A stretch of DNA of 23,274 nt from a virus (taxonomy: Duplodnaviria; Heunggongvirae; Uroviricota; Caudoviricetes), in the IMG/VR virus record IMGVR_UViG_2571042372_000002; one strand, written 5' to 3'. The notes under the pieces are model-generated. The model saw nothing but the letters and a program-made list of their open reading frames with translations. It did not search any database and was not told the DNA's origin. A program made the translations under genes and the position numbers. Of the stretch, positions 22,190 through 22,483 are shown piece by piece (the stretch's first letter is position 1; every line of letters begins with the position of its first letter).

Positions 22190-22483
22190 ATGGATATAAG
22201 CCCCTTACTTCATGCGCTTTGTGCTGTGGCTGCGCAGATACTGGTTGGTCTTTTTACCGGAAACTGGGCTTACGGAGCGATAGCCGGTTGTACGTTCTTC
22301 ATTGCGCGTGAACATACCCAGGCAGAATATCGCTGGATTGAAATGTTCGGGCATGGCAAGCGAATGAATATGCCGTGGTGGGGCGGTTTTGATCCGCGAG
22401 CTTGGGATGTGGCAAGCCTGATGGATTTTGCTGTGCCGGTGGTGGCGTGTCTGCTGGTCTGGCTGTTGGTTAATCGTGGGTGA
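22190..22483 (+). CDS. hypothetical small membrane protein (97 aa, 2-3 predicted hydrophobic helices)
   Basis: Strong SD AAAGGAGG (22177-22184) 5 nt before ATG 22190. Hydrophobic segments LLHALCAVAAQILVGLFTG and FAVPVVACLLVWLLV flank a Trp/charged loop (EYRWIEMFGHGKRMNMPWWGGFDPRAW). No homolog recognised. Confidence 0.55.
   Translation: MDISPLLHALCAVAAQILVGLFTGNWAYGAIAGCTFFIAREHTQAEYRWIEMFGHGKRMNMPWWGGFDPRAWDVASLMDFAVPVVACLLVWLLVNRG

Follow-up and report, generated by a model that had tools for sequence, protein, structure and literature searches.

Background

The lipoproteins Cor (phi80, N15 and T1-like phages) and Llp (T5) mask FhuA, are encoded beside the genes of receptor-binding proteins and travel with the matching binding protein. 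T4 Imm, P22 SieA and HK97 gp15 are small inner-membrane proteins encoded by dispensable phage genes, and each such DNA-entry exclusion protein acts on the ejection machinery of certain phages only. Serotype-conversion factors, including epsilon15 gp21/gp22, D3 Iap, Sf6 Oac and the Gtr proteins, are encoded after tailspike genes. In this study, we analyzed a small gene at positions 22190-22483 (+) of a 23,274-nucleotide stretch of tailed-phage DNA (IMG/VR record IMGVR_UViG_2571042372_000002, hereafter the window), which encodes a 97-amino-acid (aa) protein of the family PHROG 1443 and comes last in the tail-fibre operon of a lambda-like prophage. The gene is real, under purifying selection, independently mobile and linked to fibre genes, and its product has a helical membrane architecture. 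As to its role, we tentatively consider it possible that this is a late-expressed accessory protein which changes the envelope of the host, perhaps by interfering with how surface glycolipids are assembled, and so limits further adsorption or entry.

Each of the described systems resembles the locus in part. Like Cor and Llp, the 97-aa protein is a small envelope protein encoded right beside a receptor-binding gene; unlike them, it has neither a basic signal peptide nor a lipobox and is a polytopic helical membrane protein, and its gene follows unrelated fibre types (tailspikes, S74 fibres, J-type tips, Tfa) without co-variation with a binding domain. No sequence or fold similarity between Cor or Llp and the protein was found with PADLOC and Foldseek. 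With Imm, SieA and gp15 it shares small size, the inner membrane and a dispensable gene, whereas homology to them is not detectable and the 97-aa family spans three tail types as well as chromosomes. The serotype-conversion factors are similar in their position after a tailspike or fibre gene, their membrane location and the proposed effect on surface glycans, and one homologue, in phage vB_EcoP-611R6, neighbours an OafA-type O-acetylase; however, each such factor serves one O-antigen chemistry, whereas the 97-aa family shows no homology to them and spans hosts with unrelated surface polysaccharides. Class I holins, for which lambda S105 may stand, are alike in size, in having up to three hydrophobic helices and in probable late expression, but no endolysin gene lies next to the gene, no holin family matched the protein, its polar motif is invariant, and orphan copies occur in chromosomes.

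Identification and conservation of the gene

The open reading frame (ORF) comprises 97 codons, begins with ATG and was read directly from the window sequence. Five nucleotides (nt) upstream of the ATG lies the Shine-Dalgarno sequence AAAGGAGG (22177-22184, +), where a ribosome-binding site (RBS) is also annotated in coliphage 21. In this region the window shows 100% identity with coliphage 21 (OL657228) and with icd-site prophages of B2 Escherichia coli, such as that of strain Nissle 1917. The phage 21 protein CPT_21_24 equals the window protein in sequence and position and is labelled 'putative membrane protein' in the phage record, while the RefSeq entry WP_000355360 is a 'hypothetical protein'.

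The protein matched the PHROG 1443 profile ("unknown function") over its full length (E = 2.4e-58, 195 bits, residues 1-96 on profile positions 1-96 of 97). A word-indexed search returned 577 homologues at E <= 1e-3, and an exhaustive hidden Markov model (HMM) profile search of the whole library returned 432 clusters at 50% identity. The 150 best of these 432 clusters measured 58-146 aa, mostly about 90-110 aa, and none was fused to a larger domain. Among E. coli-phage copies the ratio of nonsynonymous to synonymous substitution rates (dN/dS) was 0.11-0.37. A first-pass annotation made from the window sequence had described a 97-aa ORF with a near-consensus Shine-Dalgarno sequence and hydrophobic helices flanking a tryptophan-rich loop, and had named homology to a fragment of a housekeeping membrane protein, a pseudogene remnant, as a possible objection. 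Sequence and hydrophobicity bear out the description, and the full-length profile match, the 577 homologues and the dN/dS values show a conserved, intact small gene. The objection does not hold, as homologues are full-length and of the same size, none lies within a larger protein, and the cellular ones stand alone too.

The gene was found in 1903 of the 5426 complete E. coli genomes, with a median of two copies and a maximum of seven; the latter number means that several co-resident prophages carry it. All of these copies bear the annotation 'hypothetical protein'; immediately upstream of several of them lies a 'tail fiber domain-containing protein'. The family was also present on phage-plasmids, and the phages that carry it span siphoviruses, podoviruses and myoviruses of alpha-, beta- and gammaproteobacteria. 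One 61-kb metagenome contig (L182, L183) holds two family copies. Literature searches on the protein, its accessions and its position found no paper mentioning the protein.

Membrane architecture and invariant residues

Two strongly hydrophobic segments (residues ~6-24 and ~76-94) and a weaker one (21-39) were recognized in the 97-aa protein, with a polar, Trp-rich stretch, REHTQAEYRWI...NMPWWGGFDPRAW, between them. An AlphaFold2 model built on a 26-sequence alignment was confident (mean predicted local distance difference test score 90.3, predicted template modelling score 0.72) and contained three helices. Helix 1 (residues 4-23; 22199-22258, +) is strongly hydrophobic and carries His8. Helix 2 (residues 26-53; 22265-22348, +) has a Gly/Ala-rich first half, which is just marginally hydrophobic in the hydrophobicity profile, and a polar second half with the motif RE..QAEYR.I. 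The Trp-rich loop (residues 54-73; 22349-22408, +) reads G.GKR.NMPWWGGFD.R.W, with R58, P62 and W72 conserved family-wide, and is followed by the strongly hydrophobic helix 3 (residues 74-96; 22409-22477, +) with the conserved D79 and P83.

Residue conservation was computed across 115 diverse family members. His8 was conserved in 92%, Arg40 and Glu41 in 99%, and Gln44, Ala45 and Glu46 in 97% of them; further along, the values were 80% for Tyr47, 88% for Arg48, 82% for Ile50, 87% for Arg58, 77% for Pro62, 97% for Trp72, 79% for Asp79 and 98% for Pro83. The family signature can be written as H…RE..QAEYR.I…R…P…W…D…P, and every signature residue is found in the window protein. The family-wide invariant residues are polar, and with the helix order of the model they would cluster on one side of the membrane.

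The phage 21 record cites a TMHMM prediction of two spans with both termini inside. Across the family, the 36-residue loop averages 5.8 Lys/Arg and 4.6 Asp/Glu, longer tails carry a net positive charge at either terminus, and the turn between helices 1 and 2 carries Arg in alphaproteobacterial members. The N-terminus, MDISPLLH with an invariant Asp2, has no basic n-region and no lipobox; a lipobox-like leader occurs in a single distant family member (P0159).

Mobility and mosaicism

Between phages with different fibres (HannyBb and PhiR49_1), the common unit consists of window positions 22177-22559 only and begins at 22177, the first base of the Shine-Dalgarno sequence. Judged from this extent of homology, the 97-aa gene is a self-contained mobile accessory unit of RBS, ORF and about 76 nt of 3' flank (22484-22559, +) that co-travels with the ORF between phages.

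The central ~110 nt of the gene (window 22250-22380; alignment columns 150-262) are near-invariant among E. coli phages, while the flanking codons differ at up to half of their synonymous sites. A hidden RNA or DNA element in this part was considered and rejected, as the same central codons vary freely at synonymous sites in the homologues of Leclercia, Comamonas and Aeromonas; the constraint therefore rests on the protein. The local DNA identity looks like the result of recent recombination that left the N- and C-terminal halves mosaic. The 611R6 copy has a HannyBb-like N-terminal half and a JEP4-like C-terminal half, and the conserved core seems to serve as a crossover point.

The gene can also be lost by decay, as remnants in Escherichia phage HC6 and others show. 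The HC6 copy (L160, 3965-4200) is unannotated, has lost its N-terminal half and bears an in-frame TAG before the last helix; the same decayed copy was found in ST1UNAM, ZCEC08 and PBM-2/3.

Position in phages and prophages

Sixteen phage and prophage contexts were inspected one by one. A gene was counted as 3' of a fibre gene when it lay on the same strand and abutted or overlapped it, or was parted from it just by a chaperone or cargo gene. By this definition, 12 of the 16 contexts had the 97-aa gene immediately 3' of a gene for a fibre, spike or tail tip, or of the chaperone or cargo gene that goes with it. In phage 21, ev243 and PhiR41_1 the order is fibre, 92-aa-type ORF, 97-aa gene, and in HannyBb a 343-aa fibre protein precedes the homologue. 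The P22-like phage JEP4 has the homologue between tailspike and integrase, and the P22-like 611R6 has tailspike, O-acetylase, fibre fragment, homologue and integrase in this order. In the P2-like myovirus phiHAP-1 the homologue lies after fibre and Tfa genes and before the sheath gene, a position between fibre-assembly and sheath genes that we take to be the P2 Z/fun accessory hot spot. In Cobetia phage Carin-5 it lies between tail spike and fibre genes. The decayed HC6 copy follows an 859-aa fibre-like protein, which from its C-terminal sequence we take to be a fibre with a self-cleaving chaperone. Among prophages, a Leclercia P2/HP1-like element has Baseplate_J, Tail_P2_I and a 939-aa S74 fibre before the homologue, a Comamonas element has a 2520-aa GpJ and a 72-aa ORF before it, and in an alphaproteobacterial phage contig RcGTA-like tail genes (RcGTA, the Rhodobacter gene transfer agent) and an S74 fibre precede it. 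The four remaining contexts comprise jumbo Aeromonas phages, a P1-like plasmid and two Aeromonas phages in which the neighbours of the homologue are unannotated. Carin-5 and the jumbo Aeromonas phages that carry the family are probably virulent.

The upstream fibres are typically glycan-directed and include tailspikes and fibres with Peptidase_S74, as well as a domain akin to the RcGTA head-spike fibre. In 611R6, an O-antigen/lipopolysaccharide (LPS) O-acetylase of the OafA/YrhL type (L171, 1905-3029) lies between the tailspike and the homologue, and a 37-aa fibre fragment directly before the homologue suggests that the small gene was acquired along with a fibre gene's 3' end. For 62 genome loci, ORF-based context statistics, which are crude and noisy in high-GC genomes, gave tail-fibre families and scattered housekeeping genes as neighbours. 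The proposal of the first-pass annotation that the gene occupies an accessory-cargo slot after the tail fibre agrees with the inspected contexts and with a unit that moves alone. Its remark on base composition also stood: G+C is 0.49-0.52 across the 97-aa ORF versus 0.39-0.45 across the C-terminal part of the fibre gene and the 92-aa ORF.

Expression

A scan of the window found no promoter-like site before the 97-aa gene. In many loci its start overlaps the stop of the upstream late gene. Because it has no promoter of its own and abuts or overlaps a late gene, late lytic expression is favoured over expression from the prophage. A strong terminator-like hairpin (19802-19821, +; 8 bp, 6 of them GC, with a T-run), annotated in phage 21 as well, separates gpJ from the fibre operon, of which the side tail fibre gene and the 97-aa gene are part. 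On the 3' side (22484-22559), a terminator scan found no intrinsic terminator, and the fold z-score was just -1.7. In HannyBb and 611R6 (L170 and L171, ~3470-3495), the tail-fibre gene or fragment is immediately followed by a GC-rich hairpin and TTTTATT, some 25 nt ahead of the start codon, and expression there would need terminator read-through. Together with the missing promoter-like site in the window, these hairpins suggest that the gene is expressed by read-through of the antiterminated late transcript.

Copies outside phages

In Aeromonas the homologue occupies one conserved chromosomal locus after a pirin gene, with a RIO1-like kinase and two lipid A acyltransferases of the LpxM type within 3.5 kb. 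The possibility that this kinase is a 3-deoxy-D-manno-octulosonic acid (Kdo) kinase was rejected, since it is a RIO1-like kinase of the PA4780 type. Alphaproteobacteria carry single-gene copies at varied chromosomal places. In Devosia the homologue follows a KpsD-like exporter gene and precedes a beta-Kdo transferase of the KpsC/S type (PDB 6mgd, E = 8.5e-43), KdsD and KdsB. In Sphingomonas humi it lies near KdsD, KdsB and a KpsD-like gene; two further loci (L146 and L148) have it in or beside kps-type capsule genes, another (L122) has it together with KdsB, and in a soil lineage it follows KdsD on the same strand after 37 nt. By a rough expectation which ignores shared ancestry, a 12-kb span would meet a capsule cluster in well under one locus in 33. 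These neighbourhoods suggest a link of the family with capsule and Kdo genes.

At eight sphingomonad loci (L122, L123, L125, L129, L130, L132, L140 and L142) a conserved divergent neighbour of about 390 aa lies some 1.2 kb upstream on the opposite strand. It has an H-x-D...H motif (LHADTFHPS...GSH) and, judged from its sequence, looks like a 2-oxoglutarate/Fe(II) oxygenase; it had no PDB match, and an overlapping antisense ORF had no NCBIfam match. A metagenome scan with the alphaproteobacterial alignment returned mostly E. coli-type copies.

Neighbouring genes in the window

The side tail fibre gene (19836-21902, +), downstream of gpJ (16301-19783), has a phage_tail_N N-terminus. The C-terminal 438 residues of its product (20586-21899, +) are related to the RcGTA head-spike fibre Rcc01080 (PDB 6tb9, E = 6.6e-10) and weakly to Laminin_G_3, and the same Rcc01080-like domain was found in prophage fibres of Comamonas, Pantoea and Chelativorans. 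A tie between the 97-aa gene and this receptor-binding domain was considered and rejected, the domain being upstream of the family in just 10 of ~70 loci. The repetitive Ala/Ser/Glu-rich part of the fibre gene (20150-20600, +) is markedly skewed in its purine and AT composition (AT skew up to 0.50), and spurious long ORFs occur there on either strand.

Between the two genes lies an acidic 92-aa ORF of PHROG 1361 (21899-22177, +), whose start overlaps the fibre stop. The first-pass annotation had pointed to this ORF as a possible companion of the 97-aa gene. Such a partnership was rejected: the 92-aa ORF follows the Rcc01080-like domain in every locus where it was found, whereas the 97-aa gene follows many fibre types. 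Because it co-occurs with one fibre C-terminal domain only, the 92-aa ORF is probably a chaperone or accessory specific to the Rcc01080-like fibre. PDB and Pfam searches gave no relative of it.

The next gene is sitD (22575-23274, -), which is cut by the window end and is the first sitABCD gene met downstream of the 97-aa gene. It had been taken for a gene of chromosomal type. This cannot be upheld, as sitDCBA, an iron/manganese ATP-binding cassette transporter (L001, 5776-9225), belongs to the DNA that phage 21 and its relatives package, where it separates the fibre operon from the remaining b-region, and phage 21 is identical to the window here. The transporter is therefore phage-borne virulence cargo and not host flank. 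The announcement of the phage 21 genome speaks of morons encoding virulence factors and describes the essential genes as syntenic with those of lambda (PMC9119081).

Discussion

The mechanism that we propose starts from a small helical inner-membrane protein, encoded by the last gene of the tail-fibre operon and made from the late transcript, which would work at the host envelope and not in the virion. The invariant polar face of the protein (His8, Arg40-Glu41, Gln44-Ala45-Glu46-Tyr47-Arg48, Arg58, Trp72, Asp79 and Pro83) may engage a conserved inner-membrane component; polar invariance across three proteobacterial classes and in cellular copies favours a conserved host target over a fast-evolving phage target. 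As its target, a step in the building of surface glycolipids (Kdo-linked capsule and LPS are examples) would be most plausible. An effect of this kind is favoured because the fibres and spikes upstream are glycan-directed, one neighbour is an O-acetylase, and cellular copies have capsule and Kdo neighbourhoods. The infected or lysogenic cell would then show altered glycan receptors and allow less further adsorption or entry, and the outcome may be receptor-level exclusion or the protection of progeny from loss on debris. The first-pass annotation had raised superinfection exclusion and abortive infection as speculations; neither found support in PADLOC or in the literature, and exclusion in this form is plausible as a hypothesis. 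A wider proposal, in which PHROG 1443 comprises very widespread tiny membrane proteins that bind or act on a conserved lipid-linked intermediate or an enzyme of Kdo-glycolipid assembly, is rather unlikely in our estimation; in it, cells would use such proteins in capsule loci, and phages of three tail types would have captured them repeatedly beside receptor-binding genes and remodel the glycans that their fibres recognize.

Several observations weigh against an envelope-altering late protein. No experiment or homology gives the PHROG 1443 protein a function: Pfam and NCBIfam scans gave no family match, none of the defence-protein families of PADLOC-DB 2.0 matched at E <= 1, a PDB profile search gave nothing significant (best E = 0.34), and Foldseek found no fold relative under E = 0.3 in PDB or BFVD. 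A PhoR match (E = 0.037), below threshold in the Pfam, NCBIfam and PADLOC scans, was taken as compositional. Charge bias and hydrophobicity leave the conserved face cytoplasmic or periplasmic alike. Kps-type capsule genes lie in or beside the homologue in about five alphaproteobacterial lineages only, and other copies adjoin ligA, ftsZ, thiC, a cyclopropane-fatty-acid synthase gene or trehalose genes. In the jumbo Aeromonas phages the homologue adjoins the terminase gene, and on a P1-like plasmid it lies among Ea22, eaa, hot, humD and phd/doc, in both cases away from fibres. Up to seven near-identical copies in one E. coli genome indicate that other carriers are not stopped from lysogenizing, and so many copies, together with the lack of an own promoter, argue against a broad exclusion expressed from the prophage. 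Late expression is inferred from sequence only, and the target and effect of the protein are also inferred.

The protein might instead leave surface receptors untouched and, as T4 Imm, P22 SieA and HK97 gp15 do, exclude superinfecting phages by keeping their DNA from crossing the inner membrane. A small inner-membrane protein whose gene is mobile on its own and sits in recognized accessory slots (after the fibre in lambdoid phages, between tailspike and integrase in P22-like phages, between fibre-assembly and sheath genes in phiHAP-1) would suit such a role, but a family core that is near-invariant across three tail types and three proteobacterial classes does not, and neither do the missing similarity to known systems in PADLOC, the missing promoter, the high copy number per genome and the conserved non-phage chromosomal copies; we consider a DNA-entry block unlikely. 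A low probability is likewise given to a factor of cellular origin which serves lysogen fitness or membrane physiology, for example stress tolerance or as a subunit of a membrane enzyme, and is carried as phage cargo like sitABCD. The stand-alone chromosomal copies in Aeromonas (after the pirin gene) and in many alphaproteobacteria speak for it, as do invariant polar residues that look enzyme-like or ligand-binding, the metal transporter next door and the P1-like plasmid copy among accessory genes. However, its association with late fibre operons, in which stop and start codons overlap, and its occurrence in probably virulent phages fit a lytic role better, and the gene has no promoter-like site.

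With about 100 aa, two or three hydrophobic helices in a class-I-like layout, short charged tails and probably late expression, the protein could also be thought of as an accessory holin or antiholin that sets the timing of lysis. Holin genes do adjoin fibre genes in T4, where t follows gene 38, and in T7, where 17.5 follows gene 17, and a phage lysozyme gene was found downstream in 2 of 46 loci. Lysis timing is nonetheless quite improbable. No Pfam holin matched at E <= 1, helix 2 is marginally hydrophobic, the neighbours in the window are the fibre gene and sitD, and chromosomal orphans lack an endolysin. Since the essential genes of phage 21 are syntenic with those of lambda, its S21/R21 lysis cassette presumably lies elsewhere in the genome, and we know of no holins with a polar motif that is invariant across classes. 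Least probable of all, to the point of being very doubtful, is the idea that the protein is anchored in the membrane to help tail fibres assemble or mature. The position immediately after a fibre gene or chaperone, often with overlapping stop and start, would accord with it, and Peptidase_S74 fibres with self-cleaving chaperones recur upstream; yet no fibre domain is fixed (the C-domain of the window fibre precedes the gene in that small minority of loci), copies in the P1-like plasmid, jumbo phages and chromosomes have no fibres beside them, many related phages do without the gene, and the HC6 copy is decayed though its fibre is intact. The protein had no Pfam match to Tfa or Caudo_TAP, and phiHAP-1 has a separate Tfa gene before the homologue.

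The gene is already deposited as a hypothetical or putative membrane protein, and the breadth of the family, its conservation and its contexts make it a reasonable target for experiments. Should it prove to lack a phenotype, it would simply join the conserved phage ORFans. With some dozen invariant polar residues, and with its gene holding a fixed position where fibre operons end, the protein likely performs one specific task at the envelope, and knowledge of its function would allow thousands of prophage genes to be annotated together. Such knowledge would be relevant to host-range prediction and to phage therapy against encapsulated extraintestinal pathogenic E. coli, including strains that carry the prophage of the window, and it could uncover a novel means by which phages, and possibly cells too, adjust entry or the polysaccharides of the surface.

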